64,000 bases of DNA from IMG/VR virus record IMGVR_UViG_3300045988_076381; one strand, written 5' to 3'. How positions within the stretch are numbered: position 1 is the stretch's first letter; each line of letters starts with the position of its first letter. The notes beneath the pieces are model-generated. The model was not told the DNA's origin and ran no database searches. It worked only from the letters and a program-made list of their open reading frames with translations. The position numbers and the translations under genes are program-made. Source of the DNA: a virus. This document shows positions 17,931 through 39,941 of the stretch, piece after piece.

Positions 17931-18603
17931 GTTTTTCAGTATTTACATATTCCGGATCATTATTATCTTGAATTTTCATGTATTTAAATACAGACTTACC
18001 TAATCTCTTATATACAGAATCGGTTTTTAATTTCTCTGCTTTTTTAGCTTGGCGAATTAAGACTCTAGTATTCTTCCTAGAAAATATTCTCTCTCCACCT
18101 TTTATTTTATATTGTACTTTACCGTTAGTAGAAAGTATCTCTAGTAAATCCTCTAAATCATCAATATCATTTTCTATTTTATCTTTAGGAGATTCATCCT
18201 CCAAATCTTCTAAATAATCTAATCTTTCTTCAAGTACTTCATCTAATCCCTCAAACTCTACACTTTCTCCAGATCGAATTCCGGAATTATTAGATACCTC
18301 TAATACGAATAACACATTCTTTTCAGATATAATACTTGTATCATTAGGCTTCCCTTCTTTATTAGATATTACTTTAAATTCTGGAGAGATGAAGACTATA
18401 TCTAAATATAAAGGTGTATCTTTCATCCAATAATTTACTTCTTCTTGTACTTCTGGATATATAAATAGAAGTCCTTGATTTTCTGATAGACTTTCTATAT
18501 GCATAAATCCATGTTCTCTTTCCCAGTCATCTATAGCAGTATCACAGAGATATTCTTTATTATGTACTTTAACTTTTACAATTGATTTCTTTAATTCTGA
18601 CAT
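17923..18603 (-). CDS. DUF192-domain protein (226 aa)
   Basis: The pattern REHGFMHIESLSENQGLLFIYPE...NYWMKDTPLYLDIVFISPEFKVI...VLEV fits the DUF192 (COG1430) consensus. Confidence 0.6.
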   Translation of the reverse strand: MSELKKSIVKVKVHNKEYLCDTAIDDWEREHGFMHIESLSENQGLLFIYPEVQEEVNYWMKDTPLYLDIVFISPEFKVISNKEGKPNDTSIISEKNVLFVLEVSNNSGIRSGESVEFEGLDEVLEERLDYLEDLEDESPKDKIENDIDDLEDLLEILSTNGKVQYKIKGGERIFSRKNTRVLIRQAKKAEKLKTDSVYKRLGKSVFKYMKIQDNNDPEYVNTEKHG

Positions 18604-30954: not shown

Positions 30955-31638
30955 TTAAGCTTTAGCTACTTGATCATTTGGTAGGTTAGGTGCGGCTAAA
31001 CTCCTATACCACCGTACCTTTTTTTCTGTGATTCTTCTTTTAATATCATTAGTCAAGAAGTTCATATTAGATACCTCTTCTGCATTACAACAAGTAAATT
31101 GTTCTAATTGTCTAGGATCTTTAAATACGGCTATTATAGATAATGTTTTAATCAACGGAGCATTAAATATATAACAATCATACATCCCATTTTCATTAGG
31201 TGCTGTATCTATATAAATATAAGGCTTTCTTCCTAACCACCTATTATATTTATGATACTGATAAGATATATCAGTATAAATTTTAAATGGAGTATTTCTA
31301 TCAACAGTTCCGAAATACTGAATTGCATCAACTCCTAAATCTGTAACAATTTGAGGTATTTCTACATGAGGAATATTAGTCTCTCTAACATTTAAATTAG
31401 AATTACATAAATTACAATTCTCTATAGGTTTACAATCTACCTCTAAACAATTAATAGATGTAACTAAATCCTTAACTGGAAGAAGTCCTTTTAAAGCGTA
31501 TTCTTTTATTATAGTTAATCTCTCATCTACTATATCATCTTCTAACTGTTCAACAGATAAGGATATATTAGATGTAATACCTCTTAATCCTGATAAAATA
31601 TCGTTTAAAATCGCAGAGGCTAATTTATTTAATTCCAT
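30955..31638 (-). CDS. hypothetical head-tail joining region protein (227 aa)
   Basis: ORF; the call rests on position only. Confidence 0.45.
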   Translation of the reverse strand: MELNKLASAILNDILSGLRGITSNISLSVEQLEDDIVDERLTIIKEYALKGLLPVKDLVTSINCLEVDCKPIENCNLCNSNLNVRETNIPHVEIPQIVTDLGVDAIQYFGTVDRNTPFKIYTDISYQYHKYNRWLGRKPYIYIDTAPNENGMYDCYIFNAPLIKTLSIIAVFKDPRQLEQFTCCNAEEVSNMNFLTNDIKRRITEKKVRWYRSLAAPNLPNDQVAKA

Positions 31639-34682: not shown

Positions 34683-34747
34683 TTATTTATTATAGCGGAT
34701 TCTGTCTAAAGATAACAGAACGATAGGGTGCGTATACTGATACGCCG
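34683..34747 (-). CDS. MCP exon 7 (..S)AYQYTHPIVLLSLDRIRYNK*
   Basis: The frame is fixed by exon 6 ending GGGGTT. The 3' splice site lies after GACAG; an alternative site sits 3 nt downstream. The stop TAA is at 34685..34683. Confidence 0.55.
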
Positions 34748-37700
34748 CTGTCATTTATATTTAAATAAGATCGTTACTCTTATTCGAGCGTTTGCTCCAC
34801 TATGTCGCCATAGTGATTAGACTATATCTTTAACTTAAACACTGTTACCATATTTAAGTTACTCTCCATTTCCGATAGACTTCTATCGTACTCTACTCAT
34901 TTACTTGTTATAGGATTTCTCTATAACTACACTTTCGATAGTCGTTGAACTTTATATACTACTAAATGTGATTTAGTGTATATCTTAGCTGCTGATTGTC
35001 TAAGATAGAGTTTCCAGCAATTAGAAGAGTTGTTTTCTCTAATATCGCTACTAAAGGGGGTCTAAGCTTTAAAATTTTCAGATATCAAACCCCAGTAAAT
35101 CATTTTCTTGAGCCTCCTGATCATTTTTGATCAAGAATCTTCATATTTCCATGAAGAACAGACTATATTATCACTTTTAAAAGTGTCTCCTCTTTCGAAC
35201 TTATTTAAGTTCTATGCCTATTTAATAGGACTTACTAGTCGTTGAACCTTTTTCTTTATTTAAAGAAACTTGGCTGCGGATTGTCTAATATTTAACCTTG
35301 TTACTATACCGAAGTAGTTACCTTCGCCATATAATTATTGCTAATTATATTTAGTAGTTAAATCTCTAAAGATGTTCCCGCAATTTAGGAGATTAGGATC
35401 CAAAATGATTCAGATCCTGCAACTGGTGTGCTAGCGGTTCCTCCTGAGATACCGTCGATCCCGCCTCAAAGGCTATTTTCTTATATTTTCATATAAGTTA
35501 GACTATATCATTAACTTGTTATAAGTTTATTCAATATATTTAAACACAAACCCTTTACAATGTGAAGCAGTTCCTTTAAGAACCTTGCTAACATTAGCAT
35601 ATTGTTTTCTACATTCCCTAACAGTATCAAATGTTTCTAATAGATTTCCTTCAAAATCATATCTTCCTACTTTTCTTTTTTTACATGGATTGAAATTTTT
35701 GGGAATTTCTAATTTATCTACTTTCTCCCAAGACCAAAAGTATCCACCATAACTTTGATTTAGATTTATAGCATTAGATAATCTATTTTGTTTTAAATTA
35801 CAAAATTCCTTAGCTTCTTTAGAATTTTTAAAACTACGTAAAAAATTACCTTCTAAATCATACTGATAGATAGGGTCATTACTTCTTTTTCTTTCTTGAG
35901 ATTTTATTGGATAAACATCAAATTTTCTATCGGAAATATAATATTTAGATATTTTAGTTCCTAATTTTACAGCTTTCTGTATTGAACTAAGATTAACATC
36001 TAAGTATCTAGCTGTATCAGACATAGATTTAAATTCCATGAAAAATACTCCTTTAGAAGTATATAAATAAGTTGATTTCTTTTGTAAAATAGGTTTGTTA
36101 GACAGATCTAGTTTATCAACTTTTATATCAGACCAATAAAATTCTCCACTCATACTTCCATTCAATACTGCACGCCCAATTGCAGCTTCATGAATATGAA
36201 TATGATCAGATGCCTCTTTAATACTATTAAAAGATCGTAAATAGTTTCCGGATAAAGAATACTGGTATATAATTTTATTTAATAATGGAGGAGTATCTCC
36301 GCCTAATGTAATATTATATGTATCAGATCTTCCAATGAAATTTTCATTTACTAAAAATCTTTCAATATTTTCTGCTTCTTCTCTTGTATTACATATAAAT
36401 AATGTAACTCTAGAGAAAGCATCAAATCCGTATTTCTTAACAGCACTCTGAAAAGGAGTTTTTGGATGTAATATACTAGATGGTTTATATATATTTACCC
36501 CATTTCCCAAATATCCATCAAATTTATCAGGATTCTCTGTTTCGTGTATTCCAATATAAATTTTTCTGTTTTTATTATTTATCGTTAGGTATACTATAGT
36601 TTTCATATATTGTGTTTTTACTTATACATTAAGTTATTTCCCATTTCGGAAGTAGAACTTCCTACGTCTATCCAGACTAGTCGTTGAACCCAATTTTGGA
36701 GTTTACATAAGTCTTACATATCCCAAAACCTTGGCTGCTGATTAGCATGTAATATTTATATTATTTAGCTTTCCAGCAATTAGAGAAATTTATTTTTCTG
36801 CATATCACTATGCAGCGGCGCAAGCGGATCTATTTACGCCAATTACATCAGTTTTAATCATATCACAGCCCTTGAACGTCCAAGATTCAATAGCTGGTTT
36901 TCCGTTAGCTAAGTCCGGAGTTAAGTCAAGAATAAATCCAAATGCTTGATCAGGATATTCTATATTTAAAGCTTTATCCGGCATAAAAGTAATCGTATTA
37001 CCCTGATATTCATAGCTAACAAAAGTATTACCTACTTTAACACCATCAACCGTTTCACCTACTTTCTTCTTCATACCAGAAGATTTACTATACATCAAAG
37101 TAGCAGTAGGAGTCCACCTTCCAATTTCATCCATTAAGTTATCACCAACCTGATTCCAAAGTAAAGAGTTACAGATTAATACGTAATCATTACCAGTTAA
37201 ATTCTTTGCCTTAGAGGTTAAGAAACTTAATGCTTCTTTGAAGTGTGAAGTAAGTAATTGATCGAAAGAGATTAAGTATGCATATCTTTCAATTTGAGGA
37301 ATTATCATTTGTGTTAGCTTTATGTTACCATAAAGATCAGACTATATCTTAATCTTATATATTTAATTATTAAGATCCCCTCCATTTCGAGAAATTTTTC
37401 TCTACTCCATATTGGATAGTCGTTGAACGTTTCTTATAAAAGACTTCGCTGCTGATTGTCTTTATATTTAAAGATGTTCCAGCAATTAGAAGGGTGTTTC
37501 AGTATTTATCACTAAATAAAGCGGCAAATTTCTTACCGTCGCCTATATACACTATTTATACTTTATATCACTATAAAGATTAGACTATATCATCAACTTA
37601 TCTTGTAACAATTATTTTTATTTAATTATTTAAGTTGTTCCCTGCTTCCATATATAAATATGTACGTCCGAAGACTAGTCGTTGAACTTTCATTAAATAT

Positions 37701-39941
37701 GATATAAATATATACAATATTTAATGCTTAGCTGCTGATTGCCTTTAAGTAGCAGATTAAAGATATTCCAGCAATTCAAGGAATTTAATTTATCATACTG
37801 TTTCCAGTATGCGACCCATGTTTAACATAGACGTTTGTTAAAATTTCCCAGGTCTCTGCGTTTGCGAATCAATTATAGTCGGTTTTCCGTTCTTATCCAC
37901 ATTACTACGTGCCCAAAGATCATGTTTAGCTTTAACTTCCAAGAAATTCTCAATCAAGGTCTTTTCCATTGAAGTCATAGTAAACAATTTCTCACTTCCC
38001 TTAGTTTCTGTATCACTAATTTTCAAGAATACATCTTCATTAGCTAAATAGGCTTGAGATGCATCAATATCATTTCTATGTAAGGTTAAGTAGTTACGAT
38101 GAACCTCCATATTAGACTGATATTTAGTCGTTCCAAAGTCGTGATAATCAAACGGATGAGCATTTGATAAGAAGTGAGTAGTCATACCAGGTTGACACGC
38201 AGAAGTATCAAGATACGACATATAATCAGTATCGATTAATCGAACAGTGTATTCATAATATTTATTACTTCTCCAAATTGGACGAGCAGTAACATAACAC
38301 TGTTGATGTGATTTATCTATCACGAAAATATCATGTTTATCGTAGTATTTTTCTTTAAACAACATCCGAATTTCAGTTCCTCCAACACCATCGCCTTCTG
38401 GAACAGCAACAAACGGAATACGTTTAATGAACCTATTCTATTTAAAGAACTTAGACTATATCATTTACTTATTAGTATGATATTTAAAGATATAATCTTT
38501 ATAATATCTATCCCCCATCTGGATATTCTTTAATTTATTTGATGGGATATTGTATTTTTCTCTTACTTCTTTTATAGTATTTAAAGTCTCTATATAATTC
38601 CCAAATTTATCATACACATCAATTATCATTCCATTAGAATAACATTTTTGTGGAACTTTAGATACTTCTGTAGTAGATATGTAATAATCCTTATACCATC
38701 CCTCGTTATAAGATAATATATTCTGAATTTTAGCCCATGAATGAAGATTTATAACCTTCATTACTTCTTTCCCTTTAAATCTTCCTATATAATTTCCTTC
38801 TTTATCATATACATAATAAATAAGATTCTTACAACTTATCCTAGCCTTCGGAATAAATTCATCTACTAACTTCTTAGATATATAATATTGATTCTGTACT
38901 AGAGACTGATTTTTAATAGCTTTACTTATATCTAATATTCCTATATATTCAGCACATTCCTTTTCTGATTGAAACTCATTTAAGAGCTTCCCTTTTTTAG
39001 AATATAAATATACAGAAATAGGTGGATTAGATTTCTTACAATATTTAATAACATCTATCTCTGGTTCTAATGCCCAATAAGAATTAAGAAATTCACATTT
39101 CTTATCTATAGCATATTGAAATTTTTTAGGAGATTGTCCGTAAAAATCAAATACTTCTAAAGAATATTCCCATTTCTTTTGTAACTCTCCAGATGTATTA
39201 AATTGATAAATTGTTTTATATAAATCTGTATTTAAATAATTATAAGTATGATCCGCTTTTAAATACTCAGTATTTATTAACTCAGATTCTTTATTATACG
39301 CCTCTTCTAGAGTATCATAAATATATAAAGTAGTTCTCTCAAATGCTTTTGTTCCATACTTTTTAACAGCATATTGAAATGGAGTTTTTGGGTACATATA
39401 AGTACTTGGTTGATCTATATAAACTCCACACCCTAAATATCCATCAAAAGTATTAGGATCATTTGTCTGATGCACTCCAATATAAATTTTATTTAACTCT
39501 CCAACTTTAGATTTTAAATTTTTAGTAAGATATACAATATATTTCATAAGTAATTCAGTTTTTTAATCTTATTTAAATAATAAGATTTACAGGTTTCCCC
39601 TAGTCGTTGAACACTGTCTTCATCAAGACCATGCTGCTGATTATCTCTAGTAGCAGTAGAGAGTTCCCAGCAATTTAAAGAATTTATTGTGAACCTCATT
39701 GATTCACATCCACGTCCCATTCGATAGCAAAAGCATCAATACTCTTACGTCCGGGCTTAGGAATATCTTGATAAACCATATTTTCAATTCTCTCAGTTAA
39801 AGCTGATACAGTATGTCCGGGACATAAAGATGCAGCTAAACCTACTCTATGAGTAATTCGTCCCAAGAATTGGGAGAAGTCATGAAAAGTTCTTGAGCCA
39901 TTCATATTGGCTCGATTTGAAATGTATTCTGCTACAAACAT
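34683..39941 (-). CDS. major capsid protein gene, interrupted: 7 exons, 6 group I introns; spliced product about 485 aa
   Basis: Three listed ORFs (39696..39941, 37838..38365, 36808..37308) read as consecutive pieces of one HK97-type capsid protein. The gene follows a scaffold-like gene and precedes a terminator. The exon lengths 240+582+15+482+55+19+65 sum to 1458 nt, which is in frame throughout. The intervening DNA carries group I core elements and stops in all frames. Confidence 0.8.
34748..35087 (-). mobile_element. group I intron 6 of MCP (about 340 nt, ORF-less)
   Basis: The minus strand carries P TCTAATTGCTGGAAAC, Q AATCAGCAGC, R GTTCAACGACTAT (34938-34950) and S AAGATATAGTCTAA (34817-34830). 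The P1 helix GGGGTT(T)/(T)AGACCCC places a U.G pair at the 5' splice site. Confidence 0.75.
35088..35106 (-). CDS. MCP exon 6, 19-nt micro-exon (KMIYWG + 1 nt)
   Basis: The exon is AAAATGATTTACTGGGGTT. Its first 9 nt are complementary to AATCATTTT beside the guide sequence of intron 5 (P10). Its last 6-7 nt form P1 of intron 6. Confidence 0.65.
35107..35411 (-). mobile_element. group I intron 5 of MCP (305 nt, ORF-less)
   Basis: It carries P CTAAATTGCGGGAAC, Q AATCCGCAGC, R GTTCAACGACTAG (35236-35247) and S AATATAGTCTG (35158-35169). The P1 helix AGGATCT/GGATCCT ends in a U.G pair. Confidence 0.75.
35412..35466 (-). CDS. MCP exon 5 (55 nt; (V)GGIDGISGGTASTPVAGS)
   Basis: This is a GC-rich island between two introns. 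The 3' splice site after CCTTTG is supported by P10 pairing of AGGCGG with CCGCTT beside the intron 4 guide. This is the only frame that joins exon 4 (ending GT) to exon 6. Confidence 0.65.
35467..36835 (-). mobile_element. group I intron 4 of MCP (1369 nt) carrying a GIY-YIG homing endonuclease gene
   Basis: It carries P CTAATTGCTGGAAAG, Q AATCAGCAGC and R GTTCAACGACTAG (36678-36689). The HEG lies between R and S, and S is GATATAGTCTAA (35498-35510). The P1 helix GGCGT/GCGCC ends in a U.G pair. Confidence 0.8.
35527..36606 (-). CDS. GIY-YIG homing endonuclease (359 aa), intron-encoded
   Basis: The N-terminus reads IVYLTINNKNRKIYIGIHE...GYLGNG...FLVNENF...YNITLGG, which fits GIY-YIG. Four nuclease-associated repeat modules follow (IYQYSL.GNYLRSF.S..EA etc.). 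Confidence 0.8.
   Translation of the reverse strand: MKTIVYLTINNKNRKIYIGIHETENPDKFDGYLGNGVNIYKPSSILHPKTPFQSAVKKYGFDAFSRVTLFICNTREEAENIERFLVNENFIGRSDTYNITLGGDTPPLLNKIIYQYSLSGNYLRSFNSIKEASDHIHIHEAAIGRAVLNGSMSGEFYWSDIKVDKLDLSNKPILQKKSTYLYTSKGVFFMEFKSMSDTARYLDVNLSSIQKAVKLGTKISKYYISDRKFDVYPIKSQERKRSNDPIYQYDLEGNFLRSFKNSKEAKEFCNLKQNRLSNAINLNQSYGGYFWSWEKVDKLEIPKNFNPCKKRKVGRYDFEGNLLETFDTVRECRKQYANVSKVLKGTASHCKGFVFKYIE
36836..37317 (-). CDS. MCP exon 4 (482 nt; LTQMIIPQIERY...KTDVIG + GT)
   Basis: This is the body of listed ORF 36808..37308, extended 3 codons upstream to the 3' splice site after the P9 hairpin CTTTATGGTAACATAAAG. The listed ORF tail NRSACAAA is intron read-through. Confidence 0.7.
37318..37534 (-). 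mobile_element. group I intron 3 of MCP (217 nt, ORF-less)
   Basis: It carries P CTAATTGCTGGAAC, Q AATCAGCAGC, R GTTCAACGACTAT (37417-37428) and S AAGATATAGTCTG (37338-37350). The P1 helix CGGT/GCCG is short (4 bp) and has a U.G pair. Confidence 0.7.
37535..37549 (-). CDS. MCP exon 3, micro-exon (best model 15 nt, YIGDG; an 8-nt alternative exists)
   Basis: A segment of about 100 nt between S of intron 2 and P of intron 3 contains GC-rich GGCGACGGT. The 15-nt model keeps the frame from exon 2 (ends CCT) to exon 4 (starts CTA). Its 5' boundary is uncertain. Confidence 0.4.
37550..37849 (-). mobile_element. group I intron 2 of MCP (about 300 nt, ORF-less)
   Basis: It carries P GAATTGCTGGAAT, Q AATCAGCAGC, R GTTCAACGACTAG (37676-37687) and S GATATAGTCTAA (37581-37592). 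The P1 helix GACCT/GGGTC ends in a U.G pair. The P2 hairpin is CATACTG-GAAA-CAGTATG. Confidence 0.75.
37850..38431 (-). CDS. MCP exon 2 (582 nt; FIKRIPFVAVPEGDGVGGTEIRMLFKEKYY...SQTQRP)
   Basis: This is listed ORF 37838..38365 extended 22 codons upstream in frame to the 3' splice site AATAGG|TTCATT. The P10 pairing is TCATT/AATGA. Confidence 0.75.
38432..39701 (-). mobile_element. group I intron 1 of MCP (1270 nt) carrying a GIY-YIG homing endonuclease gene
   Basis: The P1 helix GTGAAT/GTTCAC has a U.G pair. It carries P AAATTGCTGGGAAC, Q AATCAGCAGC and R GTTCAACGACTAG (39601-39612). The HEG follows, then S GATATAGTCTAA (38451-38463). Confidence 0.8.
38465..39547 (-). CDS. GIY-YIG homing endonuclease (360 aa), intron-encoded; paralog of 35527..36606
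   Basis: It reads MKYIVYLTKN...KIYIGVHQTNDPNTFDGYLGCGVY...PKTPFQYAVKKYG. This is colinear with the other HEG (PKTPFQSAVKKYG). Repeat modules follow downstream. Confidence 0.8.
   Translation of the reverse strand: MKYIVYLTKNLKSKVGELNKIYIGVHQTNDPNTFDGYLGCGVYIDQPSTYMYPKTPFQYAVKKYGTKAFERTTLYIYDTLEEAYNKESELINTEYLKADHTYNYLNTDLYKTIYQFNTSGELQKKWEYSLEVFDFYGQSPKKFQYAIDKKCEFLNSYWALEPEIDVIKYCKKSNPPISVYLYSKKGKLLNEFQSEKECAEYIGILDISKAIKNQSLVQNQYYISKKLVDEFIPKARISCKNLIYYVYDKEGNYIGRFKGKEVMKVINLHSWAKIQNILSYNEGWYKDYYISTTEVSKVPQKCYSNGMIIDVYDKFGNYIETLNTIKEVREKYNIPSNKLKNIQMGDRYYKDYIFKYHTNK
39702..39941 (-). CDS. MCP exon 1 (240 nt; MFVAEYISNRANMNG...AFAIEWDVDVN)
   Basis: This is listed ORF 39696..39941 minus its last codon. 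The 5' splice site follows GTGAAT. Confidence 0.75.

Follow-up and report, generated by a model that had tools for sequence, protein, structure and literature searches.

How can exons of 15, 55 and 19 nucleotides (nt) be kept in a mature messenger when a group I ribozyme lies on either side of each of them? The question is raised by the virus record IMGVR_UViG_3300045988_076381, of which a stretch of 64,000 nt was analysed (hereafter the window). Its minus strand, from 39941 to 34690, holds the major capsid protein (MCP) gene of a crAss-like gut phage, divided into seven exons by six group I introns, and the region from 34,748 to 37,700, which had been the object of an earlier sequence-only reading, is the 3' part of this gene. 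The phage belongs probably to the Zeta group. The answer that we favor, and which comparative data make likely, is that each of the six introns has guides of its own and would be spliced independently with inclusion of the short exons, the micro-exons having arisen through repeated invasion of the gene by introns.

Exons and introns of the capsid gene

The junctions were placed on the template of P0001, an intronless homolog of 482 amino acids (aa) and 70% identity, which was found with the open reading frame (ORF) fragments lying between ribozyme matches and which contains the Pfam Crass_capsid domain (54.3 bits). The resulting map is as follows.

39702-39941, minus strand: MCP exon 1, 240 nt, aa 1-80, 3' end GTGAAT, placed by its ORF and by colinearity with the intronless P0001
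38432-39701, minus strand: intron 1, 1270 nt, between exons 1 and 2
37850-38431, minus strand: MCP exon 2, 582 nt, aa 81-274, 3' end AGACCT
37550-37849, minus strand: intron 2 (type a), 300 nt, 3' boundary ambiguous by 2-3 nt
37535-37549, minus strand: micro-exon 3 (TATATAGGCGACGGT), 15 nt, encoding YIGDG, placed by protein colinearity
37306-37534, minus strand: intron 3, 229 nt, guide GCCG at 37525-37522, Rfam RF00028 match
36836-37305, minus strand: MCP exon 4, 470 nt, 3' end TGGCGT, which pairs with the intron 4 guide
35467-36835, minus strand: intron 4, 1369 nt, NUMOD1 ORF inside, RF00028 match in two pieces
35412-35466, minus strand: exon 5, 55 nt, completes V436 and then encodes GGIDGISGGTASTPVAGS
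35107-35411, minus strand: intron 5, 305 nt, without ORF and without P2, 3' end CTCAAG, RF00028 match
35088-35106, minus strand: micro-exon 6 (AAAATGATTTACTGGGGTT), 19 nt, encoding KMIYWG plus the first base of Y461
34752-35087, minus strand: intron 6, 336 nt, without ORF, 3' end TAAATG, RF00028 match, its 3' side reaching 47 nt past that match
34690-34751, minus strand: MCP exon 7, 62 nt including the stop, starting with ACAGCGGC and encoding (Y)SGVSVYAPYRSVIFRQNPL before the stop

The joined exons form an open frame of 1443 nt. Its 480-aa product is colinear with P0001 from end to end, a single residue at the exon 2/3 junction being the sole gap in the alignment, and scores 41.8 bits against Pfam Crass_capsid (PF23898; cut-off 27). 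In all six cases the last base of the upstream exon is T and that of the intron is G. The predicted ligated junctions are GCGACGGT joined to ATAATTCC for exons 3 and 4, TTGGCGT joined to AGGCGGGAT for exons 4 and 5 (TTGGCGT-AGGCGGG), GCAGGATCT joined to AAAATGATT for exons 5 and 6, and CTGGGGTT joined to ACAGCGGCG for exons 6 and 7, the last with an exon 7 side that begins ACAGCGGC. Residues from exons 5 and 6 align with all 21 full-length homologs, including the invariant G441 and G460, and the loss of exon 5 (55 nt), of exon 6 (19 nt) or of both (74 nt) would result in a frameshift. The boundaries previously proposed for these two exons were right, as indicated by the spliced frame, by colinearity and by related alleles in which the exons are fused. 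Among GenBank phages, megablast with the gene gave no match and tblastn found only relatives at 41-47%.

Four introns matched the group I intron family of Rfam (RF00028) above its gathering score of 50 bits: intron 3 (37318-37544, 107.2 bits), intron 6 (34798-35081, 88.2 bits), intron 2 (37561-37838, 77 bits) and intron 5 (35139-35479, 66.1 bits). Two further matches, obtained with relaxed thresholds, represent intron 4 (36610-36845 at 47 bits and 35480-35574 at 26.3 bits) and flank an ORF of 359 aa. Intron 1 had no RF00028 match because an ORF of 1083 nt separates its two core motifs, GTTCAACGACTA (39601-39612) and GATATAGTCT (38453-38462), both of which are exact. In fact, exact copies of the core motifs GTTCAACGACTA and [GA]ATATAGTCT are found once each in all six introns, which are group I introns and presumably self-splicing.

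In introns 1 and 4 the ORF is located between the two conserved core motifs, with 360 aa (38465-39547) and 359 aa (35527-36606), respectively. Both products contain NUMOD1 (25.2 and 77 bits for the two window ORFs, with a Pfam cut-off of 22.8), a domain typical of intron homing endonucleases.

Guide pairings at the short exons

In the mechanism that we propose, the last 4-7 nt of the upstream exon, ending in U, would pair with the guide of the intron (P1, with U.G at the cleavage site), and the start of the downstream exon would pair with the bases immediately 5' of this guide (P10). A P1 of 4-7 base pairs (bp), in which the terminal U of the upstream exon pairs with a G of the guide, was found in all six introns. 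Intron 5 begins with its P10 guide (nt 1-10, GAATCATTTT, 35411-35402), followed by its P1 guide (nt 11-17, GGATCCT, 35401-35395). The last seven nt of exon 5 (AGGATCT) form with the latter a P1 of 7 bp with U.G at the splice site, and the P10 formed by AAAATGATT and AATCATTTT has 9 exact bp, or 10 bp with an additional U.G, filling the whole gap between splice site and guide. The chance of nine Watson-Crick pairs in a fixed register is about 1.3e-5 at the present base composition. At the other end of exon 6, nt 14-19 (GGGGTT) and the intron 6 guide GACCCC (35062-35057) form a P1 of 6 bp.

The two helices take up nt 1-10 and nt 14-19 of exon 6, that is, 16 of its 19 nt, with ACT (nt 11-13) free. 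The sequence-only reading had described the 9-bp P10, the use of the exon 6 end as P1 of intron 6 and an exon almost entirely employed in guide pairing, and on these points our results agree with it. It had also assumed that the same few nucleotides must serve two introns; this was mistaken, the P10 of intron 5 and the P1 of intron 6 being disjoint.

Exon 5 also starts with a P10 and ends with a 7-bp P1, as had been stated. The guides of intron 4 are GCGCCG for P1 (36821-36816) and TCCGCTT for P10 (36828-36822), and the latter pairs with nt 1-7 of exon 5 (AGGCGGG) over 7 bp, two of them G.U; the earlier count had been 6 bp. Intron 1 has a P1 of 7 bp with its guide GTTCACA (39694-39688) and a P10 of 6 bp with AATGAG (39700-39695), and intron 2 a P1 of 5 bp with GGGTC (37817-37813).

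In a matrix of contiguous pairs, the cognate P1 and P10 top every row, except for the weak P10s of introns 3 and 6, and in duplex energy no partner surpasses the cognate one for P1 in five of the six introns or for P10 in four. Moreover, when a 777-nt precursor spanning exons 5-7 was folded at minimum free energy, both P1 hairpins were recovered.

We considered a rule by which strong P10s occur only before micro-exons (-10.3, -10.8 and -7.2 vs -3.2, -0.5 and -2.9 kcal/mol), and rejected it because the same P10s persist in alleles with a long downstream exon.

The 3' tail of intron 5 forms a hairpin (CTTGATCAAAAATGATCAGG, 35111-35130) directly before the 3' splice site. The hairpin includes AAAATGAT, a near-copy of the exon 6 start that is not preceded by G and that could compete for the P10 guide. 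Intron 5 variants in other loci have different 3' tails.

Related loci with fewer introns

Relatives were obtained by searching IMG/VR and metagenome contigs with the spliced protein, which resulted in 36 usable loci (L001-L021 and L142-L160) from human gut assemblies, a few of them duplicates of one contig. The contigs reach 168 kilobases (kb), and in the best segments the capsid proteins show 96-100% identity. Introns 2-6 vary independently in presence among these loci, except that intron 6 is always accompanied by intron 5; all other combinations of introns 4, 5 and 6 were seen. Intron 4 is missing from 16 loci (e.g., L003, L004 and L008-L012), and it was found without introns 5 and 6 just as these were found without it. 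In five loci intron 5 is present without intron 6 (L002, L017, L019, L154 and L155) and exon 6 is there fused to exon 7. Both introns are missing from L014-L016, L020, L144, L152 and L156. Intron 2 is missing from L001, L005, L006, L009 and L010 and intron 3 from L007, L008, L013-L015 and L020; each of the two was found alone, and alleles devoid of intron 2 have exon 3 fused to exon 2, those devoid of intron 3 having it fused to exon 4. Introns 2, 3, 4 and 5 each occur in some relative that lacks one or both of the neighbors present here. In every place where an intron is lacking, the exons on its two sides are continuous, and the point of fusion is exactly the junction that had been predicted.

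A more distant relative, L081 (3109-4542 of a 175.9-kb contig, 73% aa identity), has a capsid gene free of introns. Its contiguous DNA, GCAGGATCT followed by AAGATGATTTATTGGGGTT and AT, equals the predicted ligated product, and the target of intron 5, GGATCT followed by AAGATGATTT, is intact, representing a natural empty site. As in L014-16 and L020, exon 6 is here fused to both exon 5 and exon 7. The locus came from a scan of IMG/VR with a degenerate 16-mer for exon 6, which returned 120 stretches, mostly chance matches, and is too unspecific as a search.

The comparison of alleles also revealed how the exon sequences are constrained. The P1 and P10 of introns 4 and 5 and the P1 of intron 6 are paired in 100% of the cells across the 36 loci. 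In the P10 of intron 4, position 4 is C-G, A-U, G.U or U-A and position 1 is A-U, U-A or G.U, so that two pairs changed on both sides; the covariation score was reached by none of 500 shuffles. In the P1 of intron 6, exon position -2, which is the wobble base of Gly460, covaries with its guide partner, the pair being U-A in the window, G-C in L001, L007 and L013, and A-U in L003, L008-L012 and L021. Only wobble-compatible changes (A-U to G.U and U.G to U-A) were seen in the P1 and P10 of intron 5, and these are consistent with pairing without being proof of it.

Exon 6 of intron-bearing alleles is variable only at nt 3 and nt 18, both of them codon third positions. The data support a double constraint on the exon bases, through coding and through guide pairing. 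Such a constraint had been proposed in the sequence-only reading, to be sought in relatives lacking individual introns, and only codon third positions, which covary with the guides, were found to vary. As to the conserved capsid residues that the short exons were said to encode, the insertion sites indeed adjoin the invariant glycines G279, G435 and G460, but conservation is no more than average in the windows of 10 aa that surround introns 4-6 (30th-47th percentile), the 93rd-97th percentile being occupied by the sites of intron 3, aa180 and aa386. The idea that introns target the most conserved stretch was dropped on account of the introns 4-6 windows.

The sites near aa180 and aa386 are two more insertion sites, filled in some relatives (within L009-L021 and L146-L156) and empty in the window, which gives the population at least eight insertion sites in this capsid gene. 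Several introns exist in versions without and with an ORF: 300 and 1378 nt for intron 2, 229 and 901 nt (LAGLIDADG) for intron 3, 308-309 and 1369 nt for intron 4, and 334 and 1400-1443 nt (GIY-YIG-like with NUMOD1) for intron 6. The long intron 3 encodes LAGLIDADG_2, and the long introns 2b (the type b intron treated below) and 6 encode GIY-YIG-like and NUMOD1 domains; endonuclease ORF variants are located at L001 7268-7879, L003 10481-11566 and L020 4231-5322. GIY-YIG was seen only below threshold, in the intron 6 ORF of L003 (20 vs 22.6 bits), and N-termini such as KIYIG resemble it by eye. The intron 4-6 pattern may have been caused by a single endonuclease break that co-converts introns lying close together.

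Elsewhere in the window, the Rfam scan of its whole length revealed no group I introns outside the MCP gene, and no tRNAs were found. A weak match to the ribosomal S15 leader (31324-31408, minus strand; 23.2 bits, E ~0.1) lies within a structural ORF and is probably due to chance, as is a lone exact GATATAGTCT at 18393-18402 (minus strand) with no other intron motif nearby.

Splicing of the micro-exons and known systems

Insertion sites that lie in pairs 15, 55 and 19 nt apart result in three very short exons. We suggest that these are a by-product of repeated invasion of neighboring sites by introns with homing endonucleases, which would call for no dedicated mechanism. The ribozymes would splice independently, most simply in 5'-to-3' order during transcription, and their distinct P1 and P10 pairings would favor inclusion of a micro-exon over its skipping. 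We infer the independence from the fact that flanking introns are unrelated outside the core and that their guides are mutually non-cognate. Blastn aligned no more than 23 nt between introns 5 and 6 and no more than 15 nt between introns 4 and 5; for introns 2 and 3 it gave three segments of 15-50 nt (78-93%). With only such short core matches, a chimeric ribozyme of the type proposed for the near-identical introns of phage Twort is unlikely.

One point that does not fit this account is the intron 2 junction. By canonical rules exon 3 has 15 nt, and the third micro-exon that had been announced at 37535-37549 is confirmed to that extent as a coding exon; its 5' boundary is ambiguous, since exon 3 would have 17-18 nt, reaching 37552 at most, if the GTG at 37550-37552, which is in frame and directly precedes TAT, were exonic. 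The canonical junction gives RP-YIGDG, one residue short of all homologs and of the alleles without intron 2 (RPVYIGDG). The guide ACA[U/C]GGGUC is continuously complementary to the Val-retaining ligated sequence GACCUGUGU, and retention of Val would require a terminal A or a G at -1. The predicted products are AGAGACCT joined to TATATAGG, with a 15-nt exon 3 and Val lost, and AGAGACCTGTGTATATAGG, with an exon 3 of 17-18 nt. Additionally, an intron 2 segment, CGTCTATGT (37833-37825, nt 17-25), is complementary to nt 2-10 of exon 3 (-10.3 kcal/mol), and the guide region of intron 2 pairs with the exon 3 end at -9.3, compared with -7.5 for its own exon.

A different intron, type b, unrelated to type a, is inserted 2 nt downstream of the type a site in L011, L012, L013, L016, L018, L019 and L020. 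Its length is 289-301 nt, or 1378 nt in a version that holds a GIY-YIG/NUMOD-like ORF, and its junctions are canonical, with U.G, a terminal G and an adjacent 6-bp P10 (CUAUAU/AUAUAG); exon 3 then has 16 nt.

Several observations weigh against independent splicing guided by each intron's own pairings. At the type a intron 2, the U.G pair, the terminal G and the conserved Val/Ile are not jointly satisfiable, and this intron is without a P10 beside its guide. Intron 3 can form a P10 of just 4 bp, and intron 6 one of 3 bp, offset, for which the candidate is GCT at 35067-35065; both are weak. Considering these three introns, enforcement of inclusion by a strong P10 is not a uniform rule. The strong P10s of introns 4 and 5 are themselves intrinsic to these introns, being kept where the downstream exon is long, and the P10 guide of intron 4 can pair with exon 7 (5 bp, -7.7 kcal/mol), a possible route to skipping. 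Moreover, in all 36 loci intron 6 never occurs without intron 5, and some dependence may exist. Finally, we infer splicing order and the fidelity of exon inclusion, like self-splicing, from DNA. It should be noted that P10 is not obligatory in the group I intron family.

With helices only 3 nt apart on exon 6, and perhaps even overlapping on exon 3, which is complementary to two intron 2 segments, a strict, kinetically controlled splicing order may be envisaged, possibly along with an intron 2 junction that is non-canonical (with a terminal A or a G at -1) and keeps the conserved Val. We regard this as improbable, and its consequence would be a capsid yield gated by ribozyme folding. Somewhat less plausible is an obligate ordered or cooperative splicing, to which the sequence-only reading had pointed and in which two cores unable to dock together on a 19-nt exon would follow a fixed order or fold jointly. 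That the guide helices leave free only a 3-nt linker of the 19 nt of exon 6 speaks for it, as does the constant presence of intron 5 beside intron 6 (Fisher p ~1e-4 over 36 contigs, the samples being non-independent), and cooperation between tandem introns has been proposed for Twort (PMC10136302). However, the alleles lacking introns 5 and 6 represent one diverged exon 5-7 haplotype (GCTGGCAGT...ATAGTGGGG) with a short, type 2 intron 4, and the association is therefore effectively a single event. Intron 5 also does without intron 6 in five loci, introns 2 and 3 each occur alone, intron 4 and the pair 5 and 6 dispense with each other, the two helices on exon 6 do not overlap, and introns as dissimilar as these are poor candidates for a single chimeric ribozyme. 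The need for cooperative folding, raised in the sequence-only reading, is not upheld: introns 4 and 5 occur without their downstream neighbor, so cooperative folding is not needed, and introns 5 and 6 have only the 23-nt core match in common.

Regulated or frequent skipping of the micro-exons, whose frameshifted or shortened transcripts would tune capsid output, appears more doubtful still. Skipping is documented between phage group I introns (PMC10136302, PMC11878797), and here the partial complementarity of the intron 4 P10 guide to exon 7, the preference of the intron 2 guide region for the exon 3 end and the fact that loss of exon 3 (15 nt) keeps the frame would all allow it. Nevertheless, an essential protein would be read out of frame if exon 5, exon 6 or both were lost, the cross-pairs that would skip exon 6 are negligible (2 bp and +1.0 for the P10 guide of intron 5 against exon 7; 1 bp and -3.0 for the intron 6 guide against exon 5), and the flanking introns are dissimilar, unlike Twort introns 2 and 3. 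That the map is an artefact or the product of decay, with wrong boundaries, a composite of intron 5, exon 6 and intron 6, or a capsid pseudogene, is hardly credible: the 5' end of the Rfam match of intron 5 does fall inside exon 5 (35479), but omission of exon 5 or exon 6 breaks the frame, their residues align with 21 of 21 full-length homologs, natural alleles fuse each segment to its neighbors exactly at the proposed junctions, and at the protein level the exons agree to 96-100% among large phage contigs, which are 80-168 kb in length.

Independent splicing with exon inclusion being the preferred account, the locus is of interest mainly in two respects. Automated annotation breaks this capsid gene up, and gene callers will always miss exons of 15 and 19 nt; the exon map given here is exact and is useful for annotating crAss-like phages, which are among the most abundant viruses of the human gut. 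It is also a natural experiment, in which close relatives have almost every intron combination and exon wobble bases covary with guides; the allele set can be used to study splice-site recognition, inclusion versus skipping and homing co-conversion in tandem group I introns.

Zeta-group crAss-like phages, with genomes of 145-192 kb, were described as having an "unprecedented" group I intron density (Yutin et al. 2021, PMC7886860), and the MCP of OLRF01000054, a genome of 166,966 bp labelled zeta_12, is in five fragments (PMC7886860, Fig. 7a). The contigs with an intron-rich MCP found here come from human gut, and their sizes, 144-168 kb, suggest the same group. The protein family is the same, and group I introns with endonuclease ORFs lie within the capsid gene. 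In that work introns were found via endonuclease domains and ORF fragments, and exons are absent from its main text; our map adds introns 2, 3, 5 and 6, which have no ORF, together with the P1/P10 pairings and the micro-exons. Our literature search found no paper combining Crassvirales, group I intron and exon.

A close parallel is orf142, the tail tube gene of phage Twort, which has three group I introns, a 23-nt exon between introns 2 and 3, and exon skipping (Landthaler & Shub 1999, as summarised in PMC10136302). In both cases several phage-type group I introns follow one another in a phage structural gene, two of these ribozymes enclose an exon of some 20 nt, and the question of inclusion versus skipping arises. 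They differ in that six introns and three short exons (15, 55 and 19 nt), two of them below 23 nt, are present here, that Twort introns 2 and 3 are highly similar while the flanking introns here are not, and that skipping was observed in Twort, splicing in the present gene being predicted from DNA comparison. We found no phage example with a given length other than the 23-nt exon of Twort, and two of the exons described here are shorter.

Other cases in which a very short exon is flanked by independent group I introns and is correctly spliced are a 1-nt micro-exon between two group IB introns in placozoan mitochondrial cox1 (PMC5436844), a small exon in phiNIT1 rNDPL, exon skipping being reported for SIOphi (PMC11878797), and a 34-nt exon in Coxiella 23S rRNA (via PMC10136302). 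They belong to other hosts, genes and intron subgroups and are backed by RNA, compared with the presence/absence alleles and covariation on which the present case is built. The mechanistic question posed by short exons between ribozymes, raised in the sequence-only reading, is one already recognised for Twort, SIOphi and engineered Tetrahymena introns (PMC10136302, PMC11878797).

In the engineered system, tandem Tetrahymena introns were placed around a 24-nt exon, and distinct P1/P10 pairings along with dissimilar cores suppressed skipping (Ueda et al. 2023, PMC10136302). That system is artificial, with identical or engineered IC1 introns assayed in E. coli, but its architecture is the same, and distinct P1/P10 pairings with dissimilar cores are precisely the configuration of the capsid gene. 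Group I introns separated by short exons are a known arrangement, in other phages as well as in mitochondria; what the present phage contributes is three of them in one capsid gene, with no new mechanism.

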